Shown piece after piece: positions 16,212-28,030 of a stretch of DNA of 64,000 nt. The notes beneath the pieces were generated by a model. The model had not been told where the DNA came from. It was given only the letters and a program-made list of their open reading frames with translations, and did no database searches. The DNA lies in the NCBI GenBank assembly GCA_963931185.1, contig OZ006981.1, forward strand, positions 295,910-359,909, given 5' to 3'. The position numbers and the translations under genes were made by a program. Every line of letters begins with the position of its first letter. The first letter of the stretch is position 1. The DNA comes from an uncultured Bacilli bacterium. GTDB lineage: Bacteria > Bacillota_I > Bacilli_A > RF39 > UBA660.

Positions 16212-16260
16212 TGGTGGGGCGTTAGGGATTCGAACCCTAGACCCACTGATTAAGAGTCAG
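16212..16260 (-). other. 3' half of the disrupted host tRNA-Lys(CUU) gene, including the 13-bp att core (16248-16260)
   Basis: Minus strand reads CTGACTCTTAATCAGTGGGTCTAGGGTTCGAATCCCTAACGCCCCACCA. This is a T-arm, acceptor 3' strand and CCA that pair perfectly with the 5' half at 26172-26198. Confidence 0.8.
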
Positions 16261-16404
16261 AGGGCTTACTTCCCTTTTTCTAAGGCTCCACCATATTGTC
16301 AAAAAACTTAAGCAACTTATTTTTCCCTTATTTTACGGGGCTTTGCTTGGTTTGTTGTATTTACTATAGCATTTTTTAGTTGGCTCTACAATAGCCTTTT
16401 TTTT

Positions 16405-16432
16405 GTTGTGGGTGCCGAAAAGGTGCCGAAAT
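16405..16432. promoter_or_regulatory. Candidate integrase arm-type sites, left end (GGTGCCGAA x2)
   Basis: GTGGGTGCCGAAAAGGTGCCGAAATG direct repeats between the att core and the int stop. The same 9-mer family recurs at the right end. Confidence 0.45.
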
Positions 16433-16446
16433 GTTAAAATCGTGTC

Positions 16447-17562
16447 TTAATTGATACTCAATGCACCATTTAACATGTTAGCAACCTCGGTTCTATTTGC
16501 TTGGAAAATGTGAGAGTAAATGCCTGTTGTTACTGCCATAGAAGAATGACCCATTCTTTCTTGTATCAATTTTGTGTGAACACCTAGTGCAATTTGTAAA
16601 CTTGCTGAACTATGTCTCAATGAGTGAAAGTTCATTTTTGGTAGTCCATATTTAACTGCTACTTTTTGAAATATTTTGCCACAAGTGGTTGGATACATAG
16701 GTTTCCCGTCTTTTGCTAGGAACAATTTATTGTTTGCTTTCCAATTATTTGATAAAGATAACTCCTCTTTGTAGGCTTTTAATATCTCAATAGTTGTATC
16801 GGTTAATACCATTTTTCTTGTTGATGTATCGTTCTTTGTTGCCTTTTCTACAATTTCGCCTTTAATAACATCTAGCGATTTATTGATAGTTAATACTTTG
16901 GTATCAAAATCAATATCGTTCCAAGTTAATGCCAAAATCTCACTTCTTCTTGCTCCCGAGTCTAGTGCTAGAACAATAAGTGCTTGATATTTTAGACACT
17001 CATTTTTTAACCCATTTAATAATGTATGTATTTGCTCTAGGTCGTAACACTCGGCAAGATGTTTTTCTTTTTTGGGTCTAGGTATATCAATATTAGGGTT
17101 AGTTTCAAGTAGTTTCCATTTAACGGCTTGTGTAAACATTAAATTGATTAAGTTGTAATAATGTAATAAAGTGTTATTTGTTACAACTTTTTTTCTTGTG
17201 CCATTTTTTAATTTTTTATATAGTTCCATTAAAGTAAAAGTTTCAATATCTTTTAGTTGCCAATTACCAATATAGCCATTGATTTTTTCTAACATTGACT
17301 TGTATCCGTCCAAAGTTTTTACACCGACATTTTCTTCACAATAGTTACGAATAAAGAAGTTCCCAAAATCTTCAAAGGTCATATTTTTGCTATCAACAAC
17401 AAAGCCACCTTTTGCATATTGTTGCTTGATTTCAAACTCTCTTGTTTCGGCTTGTTTTTTCGTTCCCTCAAAAATCTCCGTTTTTCTCTTTCTTTTTCCG
17501 TCTATATTGTAGCCAATTTCTGCTATTATTTTATATTTATTTTTTGATAGTTGTTTTATCAT
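16447..17562 (-). CDS. int: Site-specific tyrosine recombinase (phage/ICE-type integrase)
   Basis: N-terminal arm-binding-like domain (KNKYKIIAEIGYNIDGKRKRK). C-terminal catalytic HSLRHSSAS...HSSMAVTTGIYSHI (R, HxxR, Y). GGAGG RBS before MIKQLSK. Confidence 0.85.
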   Translation of the reverse strand: MIKQLSKNKYKIIAEIGYNIDGKRKRKTEIFEGTKKQAETREFEIKQQYAKGGFVVDSKNMTFEDFGNFFIRNYCEENVGVKTLDGYKSMLEKINGYIGNWQLKDIETFTLMELYKKLKNGTRKKVVTNNTLLHYYNLINLMFTQAVKWKLLETNPNIDIPRPKKEKHLAECYDLEQIHTLLNGLKNECLKYQALIVLALDSGARRSEILALTWNDIDFDTKVLTINKSLDVIKGEIVEKATKNDTSTRKMVLTDTTIEILKAYKEELSLSNNWKANNKLFLAKDGKPMYPTTCGKIFQKVAVKYGLPKMNFHSLRHSSASLQIALGVHTKLIQERMGHSSMAVTTGIYSHIFQANRTEVANMLNGALSIN

Positions 17563-17635
17563 TTTTCGTTCCTCCAATCATTTGATAAAACAATCTCTAT
17601 CTACTTATAATTATACCATATTTTCCTTGTTTTTC

Positions 17636-17833
17636 CTAGTAAAATAGAGATGTTTTGCTTTCTTTTTCTTGTAATTTTTCTACCCATGTATTGATACTTT
17701 TTAAATCAAACATAATACGATTTCCTATTCTAAAGTGTGGTATTTTTTTCTCTCTTACCAACTTTCTAATTTCCGATATAGATATTTTTAAATAGTTTGA
17801 TAAATCTTTTAAATTACATATTTCTTTTGTCAT
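17636..17833 (-). CDS. xis: Excisionase/Xis-family small HTH DNA-binding protein
   Basis: 65 aa; ISISEIRKLVREKKIPHFRIGNRIMF matches the excisionase-family HTH; GGAGG RBS; directly upstream of int. Confidence 0.7.
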   Translation of the reverse strand: MTKEICNLKDLSNYLKISISEIRKLVREKKIPHFRIGNRIMFDLKSINTWVEKLQEKESKTSLFY

Positions 17834-17939
17834 TTGTTAAACCTCCAATTTTTTGATTTTCCGTTCGAACAATTAGAGTTTACCTTTAACAAAAGCCTCA
17901 AATCTCGTACAAGTTTTTTGATTAAGTGTTCCATTTTGA

Positions 17940-18230
17940 AAACTAAAAAAAGCCCGTAATATAAGGGCTAGAGAGATTTACTTGTCCGATTTTTCGAGTA
18001 ATAAGTTTTAATTTTGTTATGATATTTTTTGATAAGTTGTGATACTTTGTGATAGTTTATGATACTTTTTTCGCCCAACACCCTATATATATAAATAAGG
18101 AAAAAATACGGGGCTAGCAAAATCAAAAAAAATGAAAATATTTTATACTTATTTTTGACCTTTTAACTCGAAAAATCGGTATTAAAAAACAAGAAAAAGC
18201 CCGTAAGTAAAGGGTTTTCATACTTTCAAA
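17940..18230. promoter_or_regulatory. Highly structured ORF-free control region (hairpins, inverted repeats, iterons)
   Basis: AAGCCCGTAA(T/G)ATAAGGG hairpins at 17947-17972 and 18198-18222. Inverted repeat GTCCGATTTTTCGAGT (17984-17999) / ACTCGAAAAATCGG (18164-18177). GTGATACTTT-type iterons at 18019-18066. Confidence 0.5.
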
Positions 18231-18375
18231 AAAGAACACTTTTACTTGTTTTATGATACTTTCTTTTAGGTATTTTCTTGGTAAGATGTAATCACAAACG
18301 AAGCAAGTCGACTTAAAAGTTTGTAAAAAAAATGTTAGAATAGTGGTAACCCCACAAATGAAAGGAATGATTAAA

Positions 18376-18861
18376 ATGACTAACAAAGAACCAAGAACTG
18401 TTTTTATAGGAAGTGTTGAAGAACTTAAGGAGGTTATAAAAGAAGCCCGTGAATTAGAAAAAAATAAAAATGCAATGAAAGAGAAAGTAAAAGTATCTAA
18501 TAAAGACTTAAAAAGATTTGAAGAAGAATATAAGATTTGGATAGAGAAAATCAATAATGCTATGAAAAAACATAACTCTGATAAGTTTGATAGCGAAAAT
18601 AGTGATTTAGAAGATATATTACTAATCGACTATGAGTTATATCTAGGCAAAAAAATGGAAGATATTTTCAATGAGTATGAATATTTATATGATAGCATAG
18701 ACGATATGATTTATATTATGAAAAATACAGGTTTTATAATTGCACCATTTATAATAAGTGATAGAACTATGTTATTAGATACTATTGAAAGTTTTGAAAA
18801 TGGCGATTATGATGTTGAAGATGGTATTAAAAGAGAATATTTTAATTTAAATAACTATTAA
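18376..18861 (+). CDS. Island cargo protein A, unknown function (acidic C-terminus)
   Basis: 161 aa from MTNKEP with an AAAGGA RBS; followed by a hairpin terminator at 18868-18898. Confidence 0.55.
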   Translation: MTNKEPRTVFIGSVEELKEVIKEARELEKNKNAMKEKVKVSNKDLKRFEEEYKIWIEKINNAMKKHNSDKFDSENSDLEDILLIDYELYLGKKMEDIFNEYEYLYDSIDDMIYIMKNTGFIIAPFIISDRTMLLDTIESFENGDYDVEDGIKREYFNLNNY

Positions 18862-18867
18862 AATAAA

Positions 18868-18898
18868 GGTTATCTTATATGAGATAGCCTTTTTTCGT
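18868..18898 (+). terminator. Hairpin terminator after cargo gene A
   Basis: GGTTATCT-tatatg-AGATAGCC stem followed by TTTTTT. Confidence 0.5.
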
Positions 18899-18906
18899 GG
18901 TATAAT
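18897..18906 (+). promoter_or_regulatory. Extended -10 promoter element (TGnTATAAT) for cargo genes B-C
   Basis: GTGGTATAAT, the same 10-mer as at 21248-21257; lies 10-20 nt upstream of the B gene RBS. Confidence 0.5.
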
Positions 18907-18927
18907 TAAGGCATGGAGGCTTTAATT

Positions 18928-20076
18928 ATGGGAAAAAGACACAATACCTTATCGGACGATATTTTTCGCAATAGCAAGTATATAAACACTTTAGAACAAG
19001 CACTTGAAATTGACGACTTTAGAAAAGAATACAAAGAACAATATGACATTATGCTTGAAGTATATAAAATGCTTATCACAATAAACAATATAATATTCGC
19101 TGATAGTAATAAATCTATCAATGATAAAATATACGAAATGGAACTTGAGTTTGAAAAAATTGTTGGGGAACAAGTTGACGAAGAAAGCGACGAAAAAAGA
19201 AAACATAAATATAGTGTAAGAACTTTAAAAGGCTTGATAGATAGTAATACGAGATACTTATTCAATAAGTTTGTTGAGTGGTATGATTATTTAATGAACT
19301 TTAACAAATTAGATATGGTTAAGCAAGAGGTCGAAGAAGAAATGAAAAGACTTGAAAGCATTGACTTTGACAAAGTTGTTAAAGGTGGTCTACTTTATGA
19401 GAAAAATAAAAATAGCAACTATAAAATCTATACAAGCAAACTAGATTATCTATTCCTTAACAATAAAGATGTATGGAAAGAATACAAGCAAGACTTTTAC
19501 GACACATACGGAATCCAACTAACGGATCGAGAGAAAAACGATATTTACTTTGTATTTAAGTTAATTGCTTATGCAAATAATGGTATTGTAAAATTACTAT
19601 TTCAAGACGAAATAAAAGACTTTGAATTAACCGAAAAAGACAATGCCGAAGATTATTTCAAAGCCTATCTAACATCTTTAAATATAGATATAAAAGATAA
19701 TAGAAAGTTTATGAGTAAAGCCGACATCTTTTTAAATGAGTTGCTGATAACTAACAATGTTATTATAGAACAATTAGAAAATGACACTAAAAACGAGCAT
19801 ATCATTGATATATCACATATTGAGGTTGAGCCTTTTGTTGCAAATTATGACTTATACTTTTTCTATGTAAATATGGAAAAGATAACTACGGGCTTATATG
19901 AGTTTACTATCAAAACTGATGTTATAGTTAAGATTATCAATGACTTAAAAGAAATCTATAATCTTATGTATGACAATGTGCCTACTATCACGGACGAAAA
20001 ACAAGTGCAAGAGGCTTTTTCTAAAATACAAAATATAATTGATAGAAATAAGAAAATGTTTGAGAGGTTGAGTTAA
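18928..20076 (+). CDS. Island cargo protein B, unknown function
   Basis: 382 aa from MGKRHNT with a GGAGG RBS; no nucleotide-binding or nuclease motif recognised; stop overlaps the gene C start (TAATG). Confidence 0.6.
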   Translation: MGKRHNTLSDDIFRNSKYINTLEQALEIDDFRKEYKEQYDIMLEVYKMLITINNIIFADSNKSINDKIYEMELEFEKIVGEQVDEESDEKRKHKYSVRTLKGLIDSNTRYLFNKFVEWYDYLMNFNKLDMVKQEVEEEMKRLESIDFDKVVKGGLLYEKNKNSNYKIYTSKLDYLFLNNKDVWKEYKQDFYDTYGIQLTDREKNDIYFVFKLIAYANNGIVKLLFQDEIKDFELTEKDNAEDYFKAYLTSLNIDIKDNRKFMSKADIFLNELLITNNVIIEQLENDTKNEHIIDISHIEVEPFVANYDLYFFYVNMEKITTGLYEFTIKTDVIVKIINDLKEIYNLMYDNVPTITDEKQVQEAFSKIQNIIDRNKKMFERLS

Positions 20077-20795
20077 TGAAATCAATAAATGTTGTTAAGA
20101 TGTTAGAGGAAGAAGAAAAAACAAAGGCAAAAGAACGAAAAAGCACGGATGCTGAAACACTATTAAAAGATATAATATGGAATTGTATTGATAACTTTAT
20201 AATGCCCTATGTGAAATCAAAAATTGAAATAACGGAACACGAGCAAGTCGTATATGAAGATAACCTTTTTAATTTATTAGTTAAGCATAATGACTTTACG
20301 GAAGAAGATAGTATCGCCTTTGACGAGGAAGAAAGAAACTTTTTAAATACAAGCAATAGGAAAGTTAAAGTTGATATGGGCAAACGATATGCTGAAACAA
20401 TTATAAGAACACATACACTTGACGAAAAAGTGGAAGAATATTATATCAAGTATACAAAGCCTATGCTTAAGGAATTACAAAAACAAAATGTTATTATCTA
20501 TGATACTGAAGCATTAGATAATAAAACAAAAAGTGCTACCACTAAAATAGATAAATTAGTAAAAAAGATTATTACTGATAAAGCCAAAGAAAGCAAGATG
20601 TATTCGCTTTTTAAAAAAATATTCGGTAATGAGTTTATAGAAAAAAATGATGTTATCTTTAGTGATAACAAAGAACAAAAGGAAAAGTTTTGTAATTGTA
20701 TCAAGACTTATATAGAAAATAACTACGATAATATTGACTATAAAGCCATTGATAACATTGACTTTGCTGATATGAACGAGTTTAAACTCGATTAA
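20076..20795 (+). CDS. Island cargo protein C, unknown function
   Basis: 239 aa; translationally coupled to B; followed by a strong terminator. Confidence 0.6.
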   Translation: MKSINVVKMLEEEEKTKAKERKSTDAETLLKDIIWNCIDNFIMPYVKSKIEITEHEQVVYEDNLFNLLVKHNDFTEEDSIAFDEEERNFLNTSNRKVKVDMGKRYAETIIRTHTLDEKVEEYYIKYTKPMLKELQKQNVIIYDTEALDNKTKSATTKIDKLVKKIITDKAKESKMYSLFKKIFGNEFIEKNDVIFSDNKEQKEKFCNCIKTYIENNYDNIDYKAIDNIDFADMNEFKLD

Positions 20796-20797
20796 AG

Positions 20798-20822
20798 AGG
20801 TTTTAAGCCTCTTTTTTGATGT
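20798..20822 (+). terminator. Rho-independent terminator after cargo gene C
   Basis: AGAGG-ttttaag-CCTCT hairpin followed by TTTTTT. Confidence 0.6.
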
Positions 20823-20924
20823 TTTAAACTTTGGTATATATAAATAACACTCCTAACATAAATCATTTAAATAGTAGGCAAAAAATGGCTATTTTCGAGC
20901 ATTTAAAACATGTGATACACACCT

Positions 20925-21176
20925 TTACTTGTTTTCGTCTATGGGAGCAAATAACTCTCTTATATCTATACCTAAAATCTTTGCTAAATGGTAAAGACTA
21001 CCTACTGAAATAGTTTGAAATACTTTGTCGCTTTCGAGGTTGCCAATAAAACTTAAAGCATAGTTGCTTGCCTCGGCTAATCGTTCTTGGGTAAAGCCTT
21101 TGTCTTTTCGTAATTTTTTCAAGTTTTGACCTATCACATAGTAGATATAATTTTCATCGTTTTTGTTGTCATTCAT
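20925..21176 (-). CDS. XRE-family (Cro/CI-type) HTH transcriptional regulator
   Basis: LKKLRKDKGFTQERLAEASNYALSFIGNLESDK HTH; divergent from the 21279 operon. Confidence 0.75.
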   Translation of the reverse strand: MNDNKNDENYIYYVIGQNLKKLRKDKGFTQERLAEASNYALSFIGNLESDKVFQTISVGSLYHLAKILGIDIRELFAPIDENK

Positions 21177-21247
21177 AGCCTCACCACCTATATATAAATT
21201 ATCTCAAAAATAAAGTTTTAACTTTATCTATGGTTCGTGGATAAAAT

Positions 21248-21257
21248 GTGGTATAAT
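21248..21257 (+). promoter_or_regulatory. Extended -10 promoter (TGnTATAAT) of the XRE-divergent operon
   Basis: TGTGGTATAAT sits 22 nt upstream of the gene D ATG. Confidence 0.55.
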
Positions 21258-21278
21258 GTTAGTGAAAGGAGTTTGTTT

Positions 21279-21737
21279 ATGCTAACTAAAGATATTTTTG
21301 TAAAAGGTTTAACTACTGTTACCAAAGAGGATTTGAAAACTTATTTAGTCTTTGTTCAACAGTATTTTGATGTAATAGATGAATATTGTCTAAAAGTCCA
21401 AGAGACTCAAAGTGCTATCTTAAATCAAAAGCCAGATACGAATGACCGAGAGGCTGTAGAAGTTTTAATTATGGATAAGTTTAAAAGTGATGAAATGAGC
21501 AGATTATTAAAGGACTATGATAGAACAGAAAGATTAACAAAAGAGTTAGAATTATTGAAAAGAAATTTTAGAACATCAGAAAGAGATATTTTATGGAATT
21601 TAGAATCTTTTGACCGAAAAAGTAATTATAGACTTTATGGTTGTCTAAAACAAGTTGAACGTGATTATGAAGAACTTGAGACATTATTAACAGAAGTCGA
21701 TAAATTCACTACTGAGAGTCACAACTATCACTTTTAA
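21279..21737 (+). CDS. Island protein D, unknown function
   Basis: 152 aa from MLTKDIF with leader GAAAGGAGTTTGTTTATG. Confidence 0.5.
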   Translation: MLTKDIFVKGLTTVTKEDLKTYLVFVQQYFDVIDEYCLKVQETQSAILNQKPDTNDREAVEVLIMDKFKSDEMSRLLKDYDRTERLTKELELLKRNFRTSERDILWNLESFDRKSNYRLYGCLKQVERDYEELETLLTEVDKFTTESHNYHF

Positions 21738-21753
21738 CTAAGGGAGTTTGTTT

Positions 21754-22257
21754 ATGAAAAGAAGAAGTTATTTTAAATTGACTGGTAAAGAAAAACAAAT
21801 GGTAAATAATATTATGTTAAAACAAGAGGGTTATTTTAGTATGTTTAATATATCTATTATGACAATATCAGTATTGTGTATATTTATATCTATTTCGCAA
21901 AATAATATAATATTCGTATTGATAATATCTCTTATTATGTTTTTGGTGTTAAGATTTAAAATGTTTTATTATTATTTAAAGCATACTGAAATAAATTTTG
22001 ACATCAATAGTAAAGAAAACAATGAGATGTCAAAATATACTGATAATCAAACAAAGTTTATTTTAGGAATATTTGGGGTAGTAATGGTAATCGGTGCTAT
22101 GGGGTTGCTTGGTGTTTTTGATAACAATGACACTGGTGGAAGTTCCGACAATGGGTATAAAACTAATTGCTATCCAAGAAGTGATGGAAAAATATGTTGC
22201 ACATCTTGTAAAAAGACGAGTTATGGCGATATAGGTTGTGGAACAACCTGTAATTAA
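21754..22257 (+). CDS. Two-TM membrane protein with Cys-rich C-terminal tail
   Basis: Leader AGGGAGTTTGTTTATG nearly identical to that of gene D; two hydrophobic helices; C-terminus CYPRSDGKICCTSCKKTSYGDIGCGTTCN carries 7 Cys. Confidence 0.5.
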   Translation: MKRRSYFKLTGKEKQMVNNIMLKQEGYFSMFNISIMTISVLCIFISISQNNIIFVLIISLIMFLVLRFKMFYYYLKHTEINFDINSKENNEMSKYTDNQTKFILGIFGVVMVIGAMGLLGVFDNNDTGGSSDNGYKTNCYPRSDGKICCTSCKKTSYGDIGCGTTCN

Positions 22258-22275
22258 AAAGGAGGGAATTAAAAA

Positions 22276-22572
22276 ATGGCTTTAATTAAGTGTAGTGAGT
22301 GTGGCAAAGAGATAAGCGACAAATCTAAAAAATGTATTTATTGTGGCAACCCTATTACAATAATTGCAATAAATAGACATTGTGAATTGTGTGGTGGAGA
22401 AATAGACTTAAATAATTGTGAATGTTTAAGATGTGGTTTTACTGATATATCTCTTTTGAATAAGAAAACAAGGGACGAAAGTCTTAAAAGGTTTAGGGAA
22501 AAAATGGAAGAAATAGCAACAGGAAGTTCTAAAAGTTTTAGAAAGAGAGAAAAAGAAAATGAAAAAAATTAG
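22276..22572 (+). CDS. Double zinc-ribbon protein
   Basis: CSECGK...CIYCG and CELCGG...CLRCG (two CxxC pairs in tandem); AAGGAGGG RBS. Confidence 0.55.
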   Translation: MALIKCSECGKEISDKSKKCIYCGNPITIIAINRHCELCGGEIDLNNCECLRCGFTDISLLNKKTRDESLKRFREKMEEIATGSSKSFRKREKENEKN

Positions 22573-22930
22573 TTTAGTATTATTATGTGGGGTTATTTTA
22601 TTAGGTGTATGTGGTTGTGGTAGTAAAGAAGAAAAATTAAATGAAATGGAAAATATCATTTATAATTCAATGATTAAAACAAGTAAAACAGCCGATAGCC
22701 CATCTGATTTAAGGTTAATTGAGGTATTTAAAAAAGATGGTAATTTTTATATAAATCTTAATAAAGGAGATGGAACATATTGCTATTATGTGAACACATC
22801 AAGAGAAGAATTATCTTATGAATATGGCACTTGTCATATAGCAGAATTGCAAAACGAAACTTATGATGATGTTTCTATTTCAAAAGTAAATAATAAATAT
22901 AAAAAATATGTTGAGGATATGGGATTATGA
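22559..22930 (+). CDS. Lipoprotein, unknown function
   Basis: Signal peptide with lipobox LLGVCGC. Confidence 0.55.
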   Translation: MKKISLVLLCGVILLGVCGCGSKEEKLNEMENIIYNSMIKTSKTADSPSDLRLIEVFKKDGNFYINLNKGDGTYCYYVNTSREELSYEYGTCHIAELQNETYDDVSISKVNNKYKKYVEDMGL

Positions 22931-23751
22931 AAAAAAAGAAAATAATTGTTGGGATAGCATTGTTAGTAATAATTTGTGTAATATTATGTATAGTGTTTAT
23001 GTTCAATAAAAATAATGGTTTATTAGAGTTTGACAAAGTTATATCAAGTGGGACAAAAACGGTAGTTATTTTTGAAAATAATCAAGCCCAAGAAGAAAAG
23101 TTGAAAAATATTTTAGAAGAAAATAATGTCAATTTTATTTCTATTGATGTATCCAAATTAAAAGATAATGATAAAAATAAATTGAAAACGACATTAGACT
23201 TGGAAAACTTAACTACTTATTATGGAGCAATTATTGAAAATAATGATGTTTTACGAAAAATATACTTAAAAGATATTGAAACAAATGATAATGAAAAAAT
23301 TATGCAAATGCTTGCTTATTATGGGGTATTAGAAAACTCAAAAGAATATTTAAACGATTACAACTATAAAATGGGTGTTGAGGCACTTAATAATGGTCTA
23401 ATTTATAGTGCTAATAGTTACTTGAAAAGTGTCGATAAAGACTATAAAGATGTCAATGAATTATTAAAAGATAAAAGATTTTTTCTATTAAATAAATATC
23501 ATTATGATTACCCAGATAATATTAGAAAAATGACTTTTCAATATTTACCAAATGATAAAATATATCACGATAGCTTTGTTGGAGAAGAATACAATCAAAA
23601 AGCATATGTTAAAAATGATATTATTTATATATGCACTCGTAGTTGTGATAGTGAATATGCTAACACAAGAGAATTTTTACATATAGATTATGTTAATGAA
23701 ACAGAGTTAAAATTTAAGGAGTGGGATTTTGTTTTAAAAAAAGTTGACTAA
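22927..23751 (+). CDS. N-terminally membrane-anchored protein, unknown function
   Basis: MKKKKIIVGIALLVIICVILCIVF anchor plus a ~240-aa extracytoplasmic domain; ATGA overlap with the lipoprotein gene. Confidence 0.55.
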   Translation: MKKKKIIVGIALLVIICVILCIVFMFNKNNGLLEFDKVISSGTKTVVIFENNQAQEEKLKNILEENNVNFISIDVSKLKDNDKNKLKTTLDLENLTTYYGAIIENNDVLRKIYLKDIETNDNEKIMQMLAYYGVLENSKEYLNDYNYKMGVEALNNGLIYSANSYLKSVDKDYKDVNELLKDKRFFLLNKYHYDYPDNIRKMTFQYLPNDKIYHDSFVGEEYNQKAYVKNDIIYICTRSCDSEYANTREFLHIDYVNETELKFKEWDFVLKKVD

Positions 23752-23837
23752 CTTTATATAGGACGAGGCGACCGATTTTTGAAAAGTCAAGCCATAAATT
23801 ACTAAAGCCCACCCCGTGTATGTGTCTATATAAAAAT

Positions 23838-23868
23838 CAAAGTTGTGCGATGCACAACTTTTTTATAT
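23838..23868 (+). terminator. Rho-independent terminator ending the 21279-23751 operon
   Basis: GTTGTGC-gat-GCACAAC hairpin followed by TTTTTTAT. Confidence 0.6.
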
Positions 23869-24018
23869 TGTCAATAGGTTTGGTGCTGGAATATATGGGC
23901 TTGGTGCAACTTTAAGCACTACCATAGCAATTATACTATGCTTGCACTAACTCTTGTTAAATGCCTTATATTGCCTTAATATGAGGTGTTTTTTTATGCC
24001 TCGATCCGAGTGCTTGCT

Positions 24019-24110
24019 ACCCTATAAATTGATATAAGTATCTTTTGTATATTTTTGGTTGTTCTTGTTTCCTCTTAAGTAAGGGTAAGTGTTAGTGGCT
24101 ACCCTATAAG
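24019..24110. repeat. 12-bp direct repeat GCTACCCTATAA (x2, 80 bp apart) in an ORF-free, GC-richer region
   Basis: Copies at 24019-24030 and 24099-24110, upstream of the second Xis-like gene. Confidence 0.5.
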
Positions 24111-24129
24111 ACACGGGAGGTATGTATCA

Positions 24130-24294
24130 ATGAATTATTACACTACAAAGGAAATAAGCGAGATTTTAGGACTATCAATTAAGACTATTCAAAAGTTAAT
24201 TAGAACAAGACAACTAAAAGCATTTAAAATTGGTAATCGTTTCATAGTCGAAGAAAGCACACTAAAAGACTACATCAATGCAAGACAAGTATAG
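24130..24294 (+). CDS. Second excisionase/MerR-like small HTH protein
   Basis: 54 aa, MNYYTTKEISEILGLSIKTIQKLIRTRQLKAFKIGNRFIVEE; GGGAGG RBS; below the ORF-track size cutoff. Confidence 0.55.
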   Translation: MNYYTTKEISEILGLSIKTIQKLIRTRQLKAFKIGNRFIVEESTLKDYINARQV

Positions 24295-24372
24295 ACTTAA
24301 CAAGCACTAGATAACATTTTTATAATTGTATCAATGAAAGGAAAAAACTATTTTAATGGGGGGGCAAGATAA

Positions 24373-24771
24373 ATGGCAAAAGTTGATATGGAGCAAGCCT
24401 CGTGGCAAGATGTATTGCAAGCAATAAAAGAAAGCAATATCAATTATGGCAAAGACTATGACATTTATACTTATTATCACTATGACAATGGCAATATAGT
24501 TGGGGTTGTTTATGGTTGGTTTTATGATAGGTGCTTATACATTGACATTGTTTTTGTTAGTGCCGAGTATCGAGGCAAAGGAATTGCTACATCAATGCTT
24601 AAGAGAGTAATACAAGAAATAAAAAGCAAAGACATTGACAATATTATTGTTGAGTTGGTGCAATATAAAGGAAAATATCTACTTGCAAATATTCTTGTCC
24701 GTCTTGGTTTTTGTTTGCATAGTCTATATTACATCTTAAGGCAAAGAGTTATCTATTATATGTCGTTGTAA
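24373..24771 (+). CDS. GNAT family N-acetyltransferase
   Basis: VSAEYRGKGIATSMLKRVIQE acetyl-CoA-binding motif (R/Q-x-x-G-x-G/A). Confidence 0.65.
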   Translation: MAKVDMEQASWQDVLQAIKESNINYGKDYDIYTYYHYDNGNIVGVVYGWFYDRCLYIDIVFVSAEYRGKGIATSMLKRVIQEIKSKDIDNIIVELVQYKGKYLLANILVRLGFCLHSLYYILRQRVIYYMSL

Positions 24772-24931
24772 TTAGATAATAGATAGATAAACACATAATC
24801 TTTGTTAGTTTGCCGTCTAATTAAAAGAAAAAACGGCTTTTCAATATAAGCCATTTTTGTTCAATTTTACGAATAATTATATGCCACCATTGACTTATGC
24901 CCTTTTTGGCACATATTTAGGAGGTTTGAAA

Positions 24932-25450
24932 ATGAAAAAACAAGCAATAGGTTTTATCGTTGACGAACACGGAGTTGTTAATAAAGAGATATACATAGGC
25001 GACCGAGTTCGTATTATACGAGAAAGCCAAAGACAACATTTACAAGATTTTAAAAAGACAAATAAAAGCAAAACATATTGTAAGGTATTTTGTAAGGCAA
25101 GCGATATATTGGCAAGTCTTAATTTAACAGCAAGTGAATATAAACTAATTTTTGCTATGCTCGGTCATATCGGTTTTGCCGAGTTTAGTGGCTACCTTAT
25201 AAAAGTTCAATGCAATATGTTTTGTGGTTACTTAAACGGCGAGGAATTAAAAAGTATTGCTAATATGCAAGATAGGACATTTTGGCGAGCCATTGATAGT
25301 TTAGTAAAAAAAGAGATTATCGCCATTGAGAAAGTTGGACGAGAAAATCATTTTTTGGTTAATCCGTTTATATTTATGAAAAATGACGAAATAACTCGTA
25401 CCTTATTCAATTTGTTTTGTGATACAAAGTTCAATTATTTAAACGAATAA
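24932..25450 (+). CDS. Putative winged-helix replication/regulatory protein (RepL-like?)
   Basis: AGGAGG RBS 7 nt before MKKQAIGF; 172 aa. Family assignment is uncertain. Confidence 0.4.
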   Translation: MKKQAIGFIVDEHGVVNKEIYIGDRVRIIRESQRQHLQDFKKTNKSKTYCKVFCKASDILASLNLTASEYKLIFAMLGHIGFAEFSGYLIKVQCNMFCGYLNGEELKSIANMQDRTFWRAIDSLVKKEIIAIEKVGRENHFLVNPFIFMKNDEITRTLFNLFCDTKFNYLNE

Positions 25451-25494
25451 TTGCTCTCACTTAATTAGTAGGCCATTACAAAAAGAGATAAACT

Positions 25495-25752
25495 TTACTT
25501 GTCTATCTCTTTTTTGCTACTTAAGTAACTACGAATTATTGCTACTTGCACGGGGTTTTGTTCTTGTATTTCTTTTGCGAACATATACTTTAATTTTTCA
25601 AAATGTTTTTCTAAAAGTTTTCTATCTTTTTTTGATAGTTCGCACTCGTCTAGTATTTGACGAGTTGTTGCCATTTCAAGAACAATGTTTTTAAACTCCT
25701 TTGTAATAGTAAATTGTAAGTCTTTTAAGTTTTCAATATCTTTTTCGTCCAT
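25495..25752 (-). CDS. Small hypothetical protein
   Basis: 85-aa charged helical protein. Confidence 0.4.
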   Translation of the reverse strand: MDEKDIENLKDLQFTITKEFKNIVLEMATTRQILDECELSKKDRKLLEKHFEKLKYMFAKEIQEQNPVQVAIIRSYLSSKKEIDK

Positions 25753-25837
25753 TTCTTCTTAACTCCTATCTTATATTTTTTATTTGCTCCTTATCAATGT
25801 TTTATCAAAAAAATTGGTTAATAGATAGAGATTTTAG

Positions 25838-25872
25838 AAAAGGTGCCGAACGGGTGCCGTAAAAGGTGCCGT
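25838..25872. promoter_or_regulatory. Candidate integrase arm-type sites, right end (GGTGCCGAA/GGTGCCGTA/GGTGCCGTC)
   Basis: AAAAGGTGCCGAACGGGTGCCGTAAAAGGTGCCGTC: three copies of the 9-mer family seen at 16408-16432, about 290 bp from the right att core. Confidence 0.45.
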
Positions 25873-25877
25873 CTTAT

Positions 25878-25913
25878 GATAATTTGTGATACTTTATGAT
25901 ACTTTTGTAATTT
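25878..25913. repeat. TGATA(A/C)TTT iterons (x3)
   Basis: TTATGATAATTTGTGATACTTTATGATACTTTTG; the same iteron family as 18019-18066 and 18248-18258. Confidence 0.5.
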
Positions 25914-25995
25914 TCTAAAAAAGTCATTTTTCACTTAAAAATACATTTTTTTATATCAAAATTTGATACTATTTTTTCAAAATAATTTTAAAATC

Positions 25996-26044
25996 AAAAA
26001 ATAAAAAAGTCTAGCAAACCCTTATAATTGCTAGGCTTTTTAAT
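25996..26044 (-). terminator. Terminator downstream of the element-borne tRNA-Lys
   Basis: TAGCAA...TTGCTA hairpin followed by a T-run on the minus strand. Confidence 0.45.
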
Positions 26045-26052
26045 ATTCAACA

Positions 26053-26128
26053 TGGTGGATTGTTAGGGATTCGAACCCTAGACCCATCGATTAAGAGTCG
26101 ATTGCTCTACCAACTGAGCTAACAATCC
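26053..26128 (-). tRNA. tRNA-Lys(CUU), element-borne intact copy
   Basis: GGATTGTTAGCTCAGTTGGTAGAGCAATCGACTCTTAATCGATGGGTCTAGGGTTCGAATCCCTAACAATCCACCA. Perfect acceptor stem GGATTGT/ACAATCC, anticodon loop CTCTTAA, CCA encoded. Confidence 0.85.
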
Positions 26129-26158
26129 ATTTTTAAGGCTCCTTAACTTGGAACAACC

Positions 26159-26198
26159 GATTAAGAGTCAGTTGCTCTACCAACTGAGCTAACGCCCC
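26159..26198 (-). other. 5' half of the disrupted host tRNA-Lys(CUU) gene, including the att core copy (26159-26171)
   Basis: Minus strand reads GGGGCGTTAGCTCAGTTGGTAGAGCAACTGACTCTTAATC, then diverges into non-tRNA sequence (GGTTGTTCC...). Confidence 0.8.
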
Positions 26199-26272: not shown

Positions 26273-26572
26273 TTACAAATTACTATTTATCAATGTTTCT
26301 ATGTCCTTATCTGTATTGATATAATTATTACAAACAGTTTCTAAATATGATATATATTTCTCATTACTAGCAATAATTTCTTCAAATTTATTATACAAAT
26401 TTTTCAAATCATTAATTACTACATCACTTGTTTGAGATAACCAAAAATTTGGTATTTGATTAGCTTTAGTCTTAACATTATCAAACAATGTAGCAATATT
26501 TAAATTTTCTTTTTTTAATTCTGCTATTTTCTCCTTTAATCCATTGAAATCTATTTTTATATTACTTGTCAT
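26273..26572 (-). CDS. Small helical protein, WXG100/Lap-like (uncertain)
   Basis: 99 aa, predicted all-helical; sits next to a WXG100-like gene. Confidence 0.4.
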   Translation of the reverse strand: MTSNIKIDFNGLKEKIAELKKENLNIATLFDNVKTKANQIPNFWLSQTSDVVINDLKNLYNKFEEIIASNEKYISYLETVCNNYINTDKDIETLINSNL

Positions 26573-26873
26573 TATTACTTCTCCATTCTAAATTACTAGA
26601 CAAATCTTTATCAATATTTCCATGTTTAATCGCCATTTCTTTTAATAATTCTCCTTTCTCTATCATAAAAAGTTCTACTTCATTTATGCTCACTAAAAAT
26701 TCATTGTAATTTTCATAAAACATTTCAGAATCAATTCCATTCCATAAAGCTTTAATATCTTCGTTTGTTTTTTTCATATTATCAACAATATTTTTTAAGT
26801 TATTACCTTGCAAATTAAAAAAAGCTCCAATTTTGTATAATTCTTTACAATTTATTTTAAAAATATTTGCCAC
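26562..26873 (-). CDS. WXG100-family (ESAT-6-like) protein
   Basis: 103 aa with a central W-N-G (ALWNGIDSE) at about residue 43 between two predicted helices. Confidence 0.5.
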   Translation of the reverse strand: MANIFKINCKELYKIGAFFNLQGNNLKNIVDNMKKTNEDIKALWNGIDSEMFYENYNEFLVSINEVELFMIEKGELLKEMAIKHGNIDKDLSSNLEWRSNNDK

Positions 26874-28030
26874 TATTCTATTTCCTCCCTATAAAAAATA
26901 TTAGATAAAATTTTTTGATTATTCTCCATATCTAAATTACAGAACATATTAAAAAATTCTTTTGAATTTATAATTGGTAATAAATAGTTTCTTGAATCTC
27001 CATTAAGTATCTGTTCAGAACTAGTATTGTTGTTTTCTGCTACTACATCAATCATAGTTTTCAAAGCAGAAACACTATTAGAATCCAAATTATAAATATT
27101 TTTGCCTTCATATATATTTAATATTTTTTCTCTAAACCTAAATACATTATCACTTGAAATTGAATCTATATAATTTAAAGCATTATTAAAATAATTAAAG
27201 TTATTATAAAGAAGTTGTTGATTTTCTGCATTACTTATCAAAGAATTATAATCAGTATTATTAATATTTGCTATTTTTGTAAAATAAGAATTCAAAAACT
27301 CTATATTTTCTGAATTTATTAAATTTATATTACCAGAAGAATATAGTTTAACCAATATTTGTTTCAAAGCAGAAATATCCATATTAAGTAAACTTTTTTT
27401 CAATTCATCAGTTATATTAATAGAATTTAGTAATTCTTTTTTTACATTCTCTATTTTGATATCATCATTAACTATATCAAAAAAAGTTGAATTTGAAGCA
27501 GATAGAAACTTTGATAAGACAACCGATATTCCTATATAGTCTATCAAATTAAAATCATTAACGCCCATTTGATTAGAATTTATACTAGCATTATAAAAAT
27601 TATTATTAACTGTAGTATTGGCTTTTCTATACGAATTGTTAACTGAATTAGTCGTATAATCATTATTTATAACTTTATTATTAGAATATGACTCATCTAC
27701 CATAATCTGACTATTCTTACTATTATTAATACTATCGTTAATATTATTAATAGTCAAAATTATTGAATTAATAGCTGTAGACAAAGATACACAATAATTT
27801 TCTAGAATACCATATGAAGAAAAATATCTTAAAGCTGAACTGGTAATTCGTTCTGAAGTGAGATTGAGATTATTAACTCTTGACTTCCAATTAGAACATA
27901 AATCTGTTATAGAAGCAGAATTTAAAAATATTTCCTTTTCAGGTAATGAATTTAAATTCATTAAGTCTTCGCCGCTGTATTCAATATTCTCAGTATAATT
28001 CTGAATAGAATTTTCGTTCATAAAAACCAC
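26873..28030 (-). CDS. Asn/Ser-rich low-complexity protein, possible secreted substrate
   Basis: 385 aa with no enzymatic motif; first gene of the three-gene minus-strand unit that includes the WXG100-like genes. Confidence 0.4.
   Translation of the reverse strand: MVFMNENSIQNYTENIEYSGEDLMNLNSLPEKEIFLNSASITDLCSNWKSRVNNLNLTSERITSSALRYFSSYGILENYCVSLSTAINSIILTINNINDSINNSKNSQIMVDESYSNNKVINNDYTTNSVNNSYRKANTTVNNNFYNASINSNQMGVNDFNLIDYIGISVVLSKFLSASNSTFFDIVNDDIKIENVKKELLNSINITDELKKSLLNMDISALKQILVKLYSSGNINLINSENIEFLNSYFTKIANINNTDYNSLISNAENQQLLYNNFNYFNNALNYIDSISSDNVFRFREKILNIYEGKNIYNLDSNSVSALKTMIDVVAENNNTSSEQILNGDSRNYLLPIINSKEFFNMFCNLDMENNQKILSNIFYREEIE

Follow-up and report, generated by a model that had tools for sequence, protein, structure and literature searches.

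Plasmids of the pSN2 type encode RepL, a helix-turn-helix (HTH) initiator of approximately 18 kDa that is poorly characterized biochemically, and many of them also contain a small basic open reading frame (ORF) of 45–60 aa with a suspected regulatory function (PMC5703833). The AICEs are presented as small integrative replicons with int and xis genes, tRNA integration and a Rep protein (PMC2440964). GNAT toxins are defined by partners containing DUF1778 (RHH) or DUF4065 and constitute one clade, the so-called 'true TA clade' (PMC9177977).

We compared with these systems a locus of an uncultured member of the Bacilli, contained in a window of 64,000 nucleotides (the whole stretch of DNA analyzed, to which all positions refer). 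The explanation that we favor, with moderate confidence, is that a single integrative element of 9.9 kb has its conserved end, devoted to replication and regulation and containing a cargo slot, in the region 24130–25752. The features considered are the following:

16248–16260, no strand: left att core GATTAAGAGTCAG, junction between the element and the 3' half (16212–16258) of the host tRNA-Lys(CTT) gene
16447–17577, minus strand: tyrosine integrase (Pfam Phage_integrase, 2.6e-26)
17636–17833, minus strand: 65-aa HTH_17 protein adjoining int (HTH_17, 5.2e-11)
23839–23861, no strand: terminator hairpin, bidirectional, at the end of the upstream operon and at the left edge of the module
23862–24129, plus strand: conserved non-coding leader (alignment; RNA fold z = -2.1)
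24130–24294, plus strand: 54-aa HTH_17 DNA-binding protein (Pfam HTH_17, 1.9e-13; TIGR01764 'excise', 1.6e-10)
24297–24326, plus strand: promoter-like TTAACA-18-TATAAT before the cargo slot (11/12 match)
24373–24771, plus strand: minimal GNAT acetyltransferase, 132 aa (Acetyltransf_1, 1.4e-11, above cutoff)
24774–24791, plus strand: 18-bp motif of GATA repeats, AGATAATAGATAGATAAA, with which the rep cassette begins, once in the window
24829–24858, no strand: terminator-like hairpin between the GNAT gene and rep
24932–25450, plus strand: 172-aa RepL-family winged-helix protein, putative replication initiator (profile, AF2, hhalign)
25495–25752, minus strand: convergent 85-aa protein, ORF85 (108 homologue clusters, 64–92% identity)
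25842–25916, plus strand: GGTGCCG in three copies, then TGATA(C) repeated every 10 bp, downstream of ORF85
26053–26128, minus strand: intact tRNA-Lys(CTT) gene of the element (Rfam, 73.6 bits)
26159–26171, no strand: right att core GATTAAGAGTCAG, followed by the 5' half of the host tRNA-Lys gene, to 26197

The four ORFs that a sequence-only reading had placed in 24130–25752, encoding 54, 132, 172 and, convergently, 85 aa, are all present, and they are conserved in more than 100 related metagenomic variants. Each of them has protein-level homologues, arranged in the same order, on numerous independent contigs from metagenomes; none is a chance occurrence. The related loci originate from MAGs of uncultured Bacilli and Candidatus Coprosoma, with one 85-aa homologue from Candidatus Scybalousia; sister elements adjoin tRNA-Leu, tRNA-Arg or tRNA-Gly genes, or occupy non-tRNA sites.

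The window has a GC content of approximately 26%, and ARAGORN detected in it two tRNA-Lys(CTT) genes that lie approximately 9.8 kb apart. One host tRNA-Lys gene is split, with its 3' half at 16212–16258 and its 5' half at 26158–26197, and the insertion between the halves is bounded by an exact 13-bp repeat at 16248–16260 and 26159–26171. The re-joined halves, searched for as a 54-nt exact pattern, are intact in 102 metagenome contigs, and the empty site, with tRNA-Ser, tRNA-Lys and uppP, is found in two syntenic contigs (L088 and L052). The Rfam tRNA model scores only 32.2 and 25.6 bits at the two junctions, compared with 73.6 bits for the intact gene at 26053–26128, which the element carries and which is missing from both syntenic empty sites. 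Because there is a single integrase, a single att pair and a known empty site, the insertion constitutes one element only, of approximately 9.9 kb (about 16261–26171), located in the anticodon loop of the host tRNA-Lys(CTT) gene. These boundaries are established by direct observation.

The left end of the element contains the tyrosine integrase and the adjacent 65-aa HTH_17 protein, which is probably the true excisionase; together they would excise the element. The repeats at 25842–25916 were considered as iterons, or as an origin, for the Rep protein and were rejected in this role. GGTGCCG also occurs at 16411 and 16422, beside int, and TGATAC repeats also occur at 18017–18069, upstream of xis; similar repeats are restricted to L016 and L018, two elements with a tyrosine integrase, and L001, L008 and L009 lack them. 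Owing to this recurrence next to int and xis, and to the restriction to tyrosine-integrase sisters, the repeats probably serve the att region as arm sites for the integrase and as sites for Xis, rather than as iterons. Most genes of the element are ORFans. No helicase loader, primase or partition gene was recognizable in the element, and neither transfer genes (FtsK/Tra, relaxase) nor packaging genes were detected.

The 54-aa protein had been described as an excisionase-type HTH, and as a domain assignment this is accurate: residues 3–52 of 54 match HTH_17, and TIGR01764 also matches, so that the domain of an excisionase is present. It is 32% identical to the 65-aa protein. It is probably not the excisionase of the element, as the gene lies 6.5 kb from int and is not exchanged together with a cognate integrase. 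In L009, the tyrosine int and 65-aa Xis block is replaced by a serine recombinase with a sharp exchange point at approximately 17888 in the DNA comparison: the int-xis block left of this point has no DNA match in L009, a homologue of the 65-aa protein was not found there, and the 54-aa gene is 94% identical. The 54-aa protein is retained, then, where the 65-aa Xis is lost. It occurs in all sister modules with 46–98% identity, irrespective of the slot gene, the Rep allele and the integrase type, and is 92–98% identical across most slot/Rep combinations. The 54-aa gene belongs to the backbone, and its product is probably the regulator of the module; it would act as a small DNA-binding module regulator, and as neither an excisionase nor an antitoxin.

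The order of the 54-aa HTH_17 gene, the slot gene, the Rep gene and the convergent ORF85 is kept in every sister locus of sufficient length, and the longer sister contigs display the same orf387, orf239 and XRE genes upstream of the module. ORF85 is the most conserved gene of the module and always adjoins the Rep gene. It has no family match in Pfam or PHROGs, and is presumably a conserved accessory factor. DNA comparisons locate further sharp exchange points at approximately 24330–24350 and at 24767 for the slot gene, and at 24767 and 25480 for rep, whose alleles move together with their own upstream non-coding DNA (24767–24932).

A tblastn matrix reveals that the slot gene, the Rep allele (three) and the integrase type (tyrosine with Xis, or serine) assort freely. 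The GNAT is combined with the 172-aa Rep in the window and in L035–L040, and with a 216-aa Rep, 33% identical to the 172-aa protein, in L008–L011; a 70%-identical GNAT accompanies an unrelated 180-aa HTH_36 Rep in L014–L015. A 116-aa slot gene is found with the 180-aa Rep in L029–L034, and 111–115-aa slot genes with the 172-type Rep in L001–L004 and L016–L019. The identities of the genes, their conserved order and the independent swapping of modules are direct observations. The element family is a mosaic formed through module exchange, and the second Xis-like gene is no sign of a second element.

The cargo slot occupies a fixed place between the HTH_17 gene and rep, where a conserved promoter-like sequence precedes it. 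DNA homology with sister elements that lack the GNAT is lost at approximately 24330–24350 and returns at 24767, and the occupant of the slot is either a GNAT or an unrelated protein of 111–118 aa. L012 and L013 contain a chimera in which only the first 44 GNAT residues are kept, which confirms recombination within the slot. The GNAT assignment of the sequence-only reading is correct, with an Acetyltransf_1 score of 45.1 bits against a cutoff of 20.7 and an acetyl-CoA motif (R67-G68-K69-G70-I71-A72) that fits R/Q-x-x-G-x-G/A and is invariant in nine aligned GNAT homologues. In this element the slot is filled by a minimal and probably active GNAT. Only 15 homologue clusters were found for it, and the 54-aa HTH_17 gene lies upstream on every contig examined for them.

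Several non-coding features accompany the module. Both sides of the stem at 23839–23861 differ between the window and L009/L029, with the pairing kept. The leader holds a 14-bp hairpin followed by U7 (about 23959–23997) and a conserved region upstream of the HTH_17 gene. The -10 element of the site at 24297–24326 is conserved in elements of both cargo types, GNAT and non-GNAT; over the region as a whole, 16 promoter-like sites were counted, compared with 14.1 expected from shuffles, which is not above chance.

The 172-aa ORF has a good ribosome-binding site, as had been claimed, with AGGAGG located 7 nt before the ATG. Close homologues of the protein are limited to four clusters, and a profile search yielded 251 relatives, mostly of 160–190 aa. 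Among 102 aligned members, Pfam RepL (PF05732) matches 29 (E<0.01; best 5.5e-9), Phage_rep_O 11, HTH_36 11, Rep3_N 4 and DnaD_N 4, and further members match MarR- or TrmB-type winged-helix (wHTH) models. The protein in the window itself has no Pfam RepL match at E<=1 and reaches no Pfam threshold (Rep3_N, E = 0.018). Nothing specific to the GNAT, to Rep or to ORF85 was obtained from PADLOC, NCBIfam or PHROGs.

The AF2 model calculated with the 102-sequence alignment has a pLDDT of 95.7 (a model from only 4 sequences, with a pLDDT of 53, was set aside). The predicted fold begins with a beta-hairpin at the N-terminus, continues through helices and a second hairpin, and contains a winged helix at about residues 103–143; it agrees with the description of RepL as an HTH/winged-helix protein of approximately 18 kDa. 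Matches in BFVD include uncharacterized phage proteins and proteins annotated as RepL, RepA, replisome organiser and gpO-N. A direct tblastn search with the 172-aa protein returned one weak plasmid match and no phage match. The RepL plasmids were reached only with the family consensus, which matched 259 plasmids, many of 1.4–3.7 kb, whose matched proteins are annotated as 'replication/maintenance protein RepL' or as HTH proteins. The RepL-type protein is the only annotated ORF of a 1,459-bp Col(MG828) plasmid and one of the two ORFs of a 1,526-bp Salmonella plasmid. Alignment of the 172-aa family with two small-plasmid RepL-type proteins by hhalign gave probabilities of 96.2% (E 2.7e-9) and 97.0% (E 8.4e-11) over residues 9–154. 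The aligned span is longer than the wHTH alone. The earlier description of a Rep-like winged-helix protein is supported by the hhalign and AF2 results, and can be sharpened to the RepL family. These profile comparisons place the 172-aa protein in the RepL family, as a distant member. Its function as the replication initiator, by which the excised element would be replicated, is proposed from this relationship.

An alternative is that the 172-aa protein is a MarR/TrmB-like transcription factor of the element genes, and that the module is purely regulatory and has no role in replication. The homology to RepL, however, extends over residues 9–154, beyond the wHTH and including the region of the N-terminal beta-hairpin; the RepL-type protein is the sole or nearly the sole ORF of 1.5-kb plasmids; and the rep position of other sister elements holds, besides the 33%-identical 216-aa allele, an unrelated initiator-like protein of 180 aa (HTH_36). 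We consider a purely regulatory module rather unlikely.

If the 172-aa protein is an initiator, it would bind a cognate site in or next to its own cassette (24767–25480) and start replication of the circular form. The best candidate for the Rep site would be the conserved 18-bp GATA-repeat motif at 24774–24791. A variant, AGATAKRAGATAGATAAA, occurs once in each of 11 loci with the 172-type Rep clade, and in those that were aligned it takes the corresponding position upstream of rep. The motif is a candidate for either a Rep binding site or a module-boundary sequence. A DNA fold of the region upstream of rep revealed no unusual structure (z = -0.07). The 18-mer TTAGTGGCTACC(C/T)TATAA is present upstream of the HTH_17 gene (24092–24109) and within rep (25185–25202); it was discarded as evidence of an origin, as no comparable repeat pair was found in the sister loci.

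The whole element might also be a phage satellite of the PICI type, with the module as its helper-induced replicon, a view that is compatible with the favored explanation and not opposed to it. Several features are consistent with a satellite: its size of approximately 10 kb; the presence of int and xis, of a small Rep module and of an XRE repressor gene read from the opposite strand; the predominance of ORFans among the other genes; and the occurrence of distant Rep relatives on IMG/VR viral contigs and in two Clostridium phages. Against it, no PHROG (or Pfam) match to packaging, capsid-remodelling or terminase small subunit proteins was obtained in an element most of whose genes are ORFans, Rep is absent from annotated phages apart from the two distant Clostridium phage matches, and no helper phage is known. 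A satellite is unlikely in our judgment.

A broader proposal is unlikely as well. According to it, the family would be an undescribed class of small satellite-like or plasmid-like integrative replicons of uncultured gut Bacilli with a RepL-type initiator, and the fixed cargo slot (GNAT or 111–118-aa protein) would be a hotspot for effectors of defence or counter-defence. The acetylating GNAT would then be an effector of a new type, which may be toxic and be neutralized by something other than a classical antitoxin.

The sequence-only reading had further raised the possibility that HTH_17 and the GNAT form a toxin-antitoxin or defence module. In this case, the two would constitute a type II toxin-antitoxin or abortive-infection pair, in which the GNAT acetylates aminoacyl-tRNA and is neutralized by the small HTH protein. 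The arrangement is suggestive, with a small DNA-binding gene directly upstream of a GNAT in a mobile element and a slot that is variable in the manner of defence hotspots. The partner does not fit: the gene upstream of the GNAT encodes an HTH_17/TIGR01764 protein, neither DUF1778 nor DUF4065, which is HTH_17 throughout (residues 3–52) and has no additional neutralizing domain. Co-inheritance was not observed either, as GNAT and non-GNAT cargo alternate across loci beside HTH_17, and in L029–L034 a 96%-identical HTH_17 protein is paired with the unrelated 116-aa gene. Furthermore, the HTH_17 and GNAT genes are separated by a 78-bp gap with the conserved promoter-like site. The GNAT, of 132 aa, is shorter than the characterized GNAT toxins, which measure approximately 160–175 aa. 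Its profile finds as nearest relatives in the PDB the 305-aa N-acetyltransferase 7wx5, Naa30 and further N-acetyltransferases of a generic type; among the 50 PDB matches (E<=10) none is named as a GNAT toxin, the GNAT has no PADLOC match, and its NCBIfam matches fall far below their cutoffs. Neither the PDB matches nor PADLOC place the protein in the toxin clade. A toxin-antitoxin pair is highly improbable on this evidence, and the GNAT is best read as exchangeable cargo rather than as the toxin of such a pair.

It is likewise highly improbable that 24130–25752 is what is left of another mobile element, one that had an excisionase and a replicon of its own and became nested in the first or fused to it. 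Two HTH_17 genes within 10 kb, a slightly higher GC content in 24001–25000 (0.317) and clearly recombining modules speak for this. Against it, a single integrase and a single pair of att repeats are present; wherever a sister contig suffices, the entire module, with the 54-aa gene, shows synteny with orf387, orf239 and XRE; and the module is retained where a serine recombinase replaces int and xis. The mosaic inferred earlier from the two Xis-like genes stands insofar as modules recombine, and not as a nested or fused second element, given that the 54-aa HTH_17 protein belongs to the backbone of every sister element, including the serine-recombinase ones without another HTH_17.

For the favored explanation, an integrative element with its own replication and regulation end, the following consequences can be stated. 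The relationship to RepL gives an ORFan family of approximately 250 sequence clusters a probable function in replication initiation, and a common, recombining family of integrative elements of approximately 10 kb is defined in Candidatus Coprosoma and related uncultured gut Bacilli. The toxin-antitoxin annotation, tempting as it is, lacks support and is removed. The exchangeable cargo slot and the element-borne tRNA gene provide handles for the study of mobile elements in small-genome gut bacteria. Current understanding is not overturned.

Compared with known systems, the Rep protein is closest to the initiators of the pSN2 family (RepL, PF05732) and of the 1.5-kb enterobacterial plasmids of the Col(MG828) type, which are likewise winged-helix proteins of approximately 18–20 kDa. 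The small basic protein of about 50 aa that accompanies Rep also has a counterpart in many pSN2 plasmids (PMC5703833). RepL plasmids are free, whereas the replicon described here lies within a chromosomally integrated element with an integrase; moreover, the protein of the window remains below the Pfam RepL threshold, and no dso or sso elements were recognized. The general plan, in which int-xis occupies one end, a tRNA gene serves as the integration site and a Rep protein is dedicated to the element, is shared with AICEs (pSAM2), replicating ICEs and PICIs/SaPIs. In contrast to these, neither transfer genes (FtsK/Tra, relaxase) nor packaging genes are detectable, the Rep protein is RepL-like instead of RepSA, RepAM or Pri-Rep, and the host belongs to the uncultured low-GC Bacilli of the gut.

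With the type II GNAT/DUF1778 (RHH) systems TacAT, AtaRT, KacAT and ItaRT, the element has in common a small DNA-binding gene directly upstream of a GNAT, in a mobile element. It differs from them in a partner of the HTH_17 fold, rather than RHH/DUF1778 or DUF4065, and in a pair that is not co-inherited; the GNAT is also shorter than the TacAT-type toxins and no closer to them than to generic N-acetyltransferases. The slot itself is best compared with the 'moron' or cargo slots of prophages. The element is no recognizable prophage, yet it shares with such slots a single gene at a fixed place between backbone genes that is exchanged precisely, with a conserved promoter-like site before it and a hairpin after it.

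Short boundary sequences, for example TATAGGACGAGGCGACCGATTTTTGAAAAGTCAAGCC, are kept across elements that are otherwise diverged, and lie at positions 23757–23806 and 24774–24791 of the window. These conserved stretches may provide the homology that permits module exchange. A chimera of the GNAT gene was found in two related contigs, L012 (3375–4034) and L013 (1178–1837), where a 219-aa open reading frame retains the initial 44 GNAT residues and then continues into unrelated sequence that opens with a collagen-like GPTGPQGADG stretch. In the related contig L005, approximately 100 bp from the 5' portion of rep are tandemly duplicated (1686–1917) immediately upstream of that gene. Distant relatives of the Rep protein, with identities of 28–33%, are encoded on IMG/VR viral contigs (L020 1469–2737 and L026 9138–10474), and GIY-YIG homing-endonuclease genes directly adjoin them in both.

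Conserved non-coding DNA precedes the HTH_17 gene of this part of the element (window about 23870–23997). It includes a promoter-like TTGTCA site, recognised by visual inspection, as well as a 14-bp hairpin with U7 behind it. The predicted RNA fold of the region reaches a z-score of only -2.1, and a search of Rfam returned no match for it. The region may specify a small RNA about 100 nt long; alternatively, it may act as a leader that bears an attenuator. Further to the left, the element encodes a membrane protein of 169 residues with a Cys-rich C-terminal tail (21748–22257; CYPRSDGKICCTSCKKTSYGDIGCGTTCN), for which no family match was found.

Two types of repeats are located near the element ends. 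GGTGCCG repeats lie close to both ends (16411–16433 and 25842–25871), and these account for five of the six copies present in the entire 64-kb window. The other type, TGATAC, recurs with a period of 10 bp; its copies adjoin one end (25874–25916) and also occur upstream of the xis gene (18017–18069). Both types probably function as arm sites for the integrase and as Xis sites or operators.

To the right of the element, three genes encoding proteins of 99, 103 and 385 aa lie between tRNA-Lys and uppP (26273–28030). They are missing in L088 and L052, syntenic relatives with an empty integration site in which uppP directly follows the tRNA, and the region may be a second strain-specific insertion. 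The 99- and 103-aa proteins are WXG100/ESAT-6-like in appearance, as judged by eye alone.

Insertion of the element has interrupted the host tRNA-Lys(CTT) within its anticodon loop (16212–16289 and 26053–26197), and a good tRNA is rebuilt at neither junction, with Rfam scores of 32.2 and 25.6 bits. A complete tRNA-Lys(CTT), which scores 73.6 bits and differs in the acceptor and anticodon stems, is carried by the element itself, 30 bp inside its right end. The sister element L016, which also has a tyrosine integrase, is inserted in tRNA-Leu(GAG) (L016 865–905 and 11108–11193) with its crossover likewise in the anticodon loop; the 5' half of the tRNA is duplicated at the integrase end, and the opposite end has an intact tRNA. 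Most tRNA-integrating elements restore the interrupted gene via a partial copy, whereas the element in the window carries its own complete tRNA-Lys(CTT) instead.
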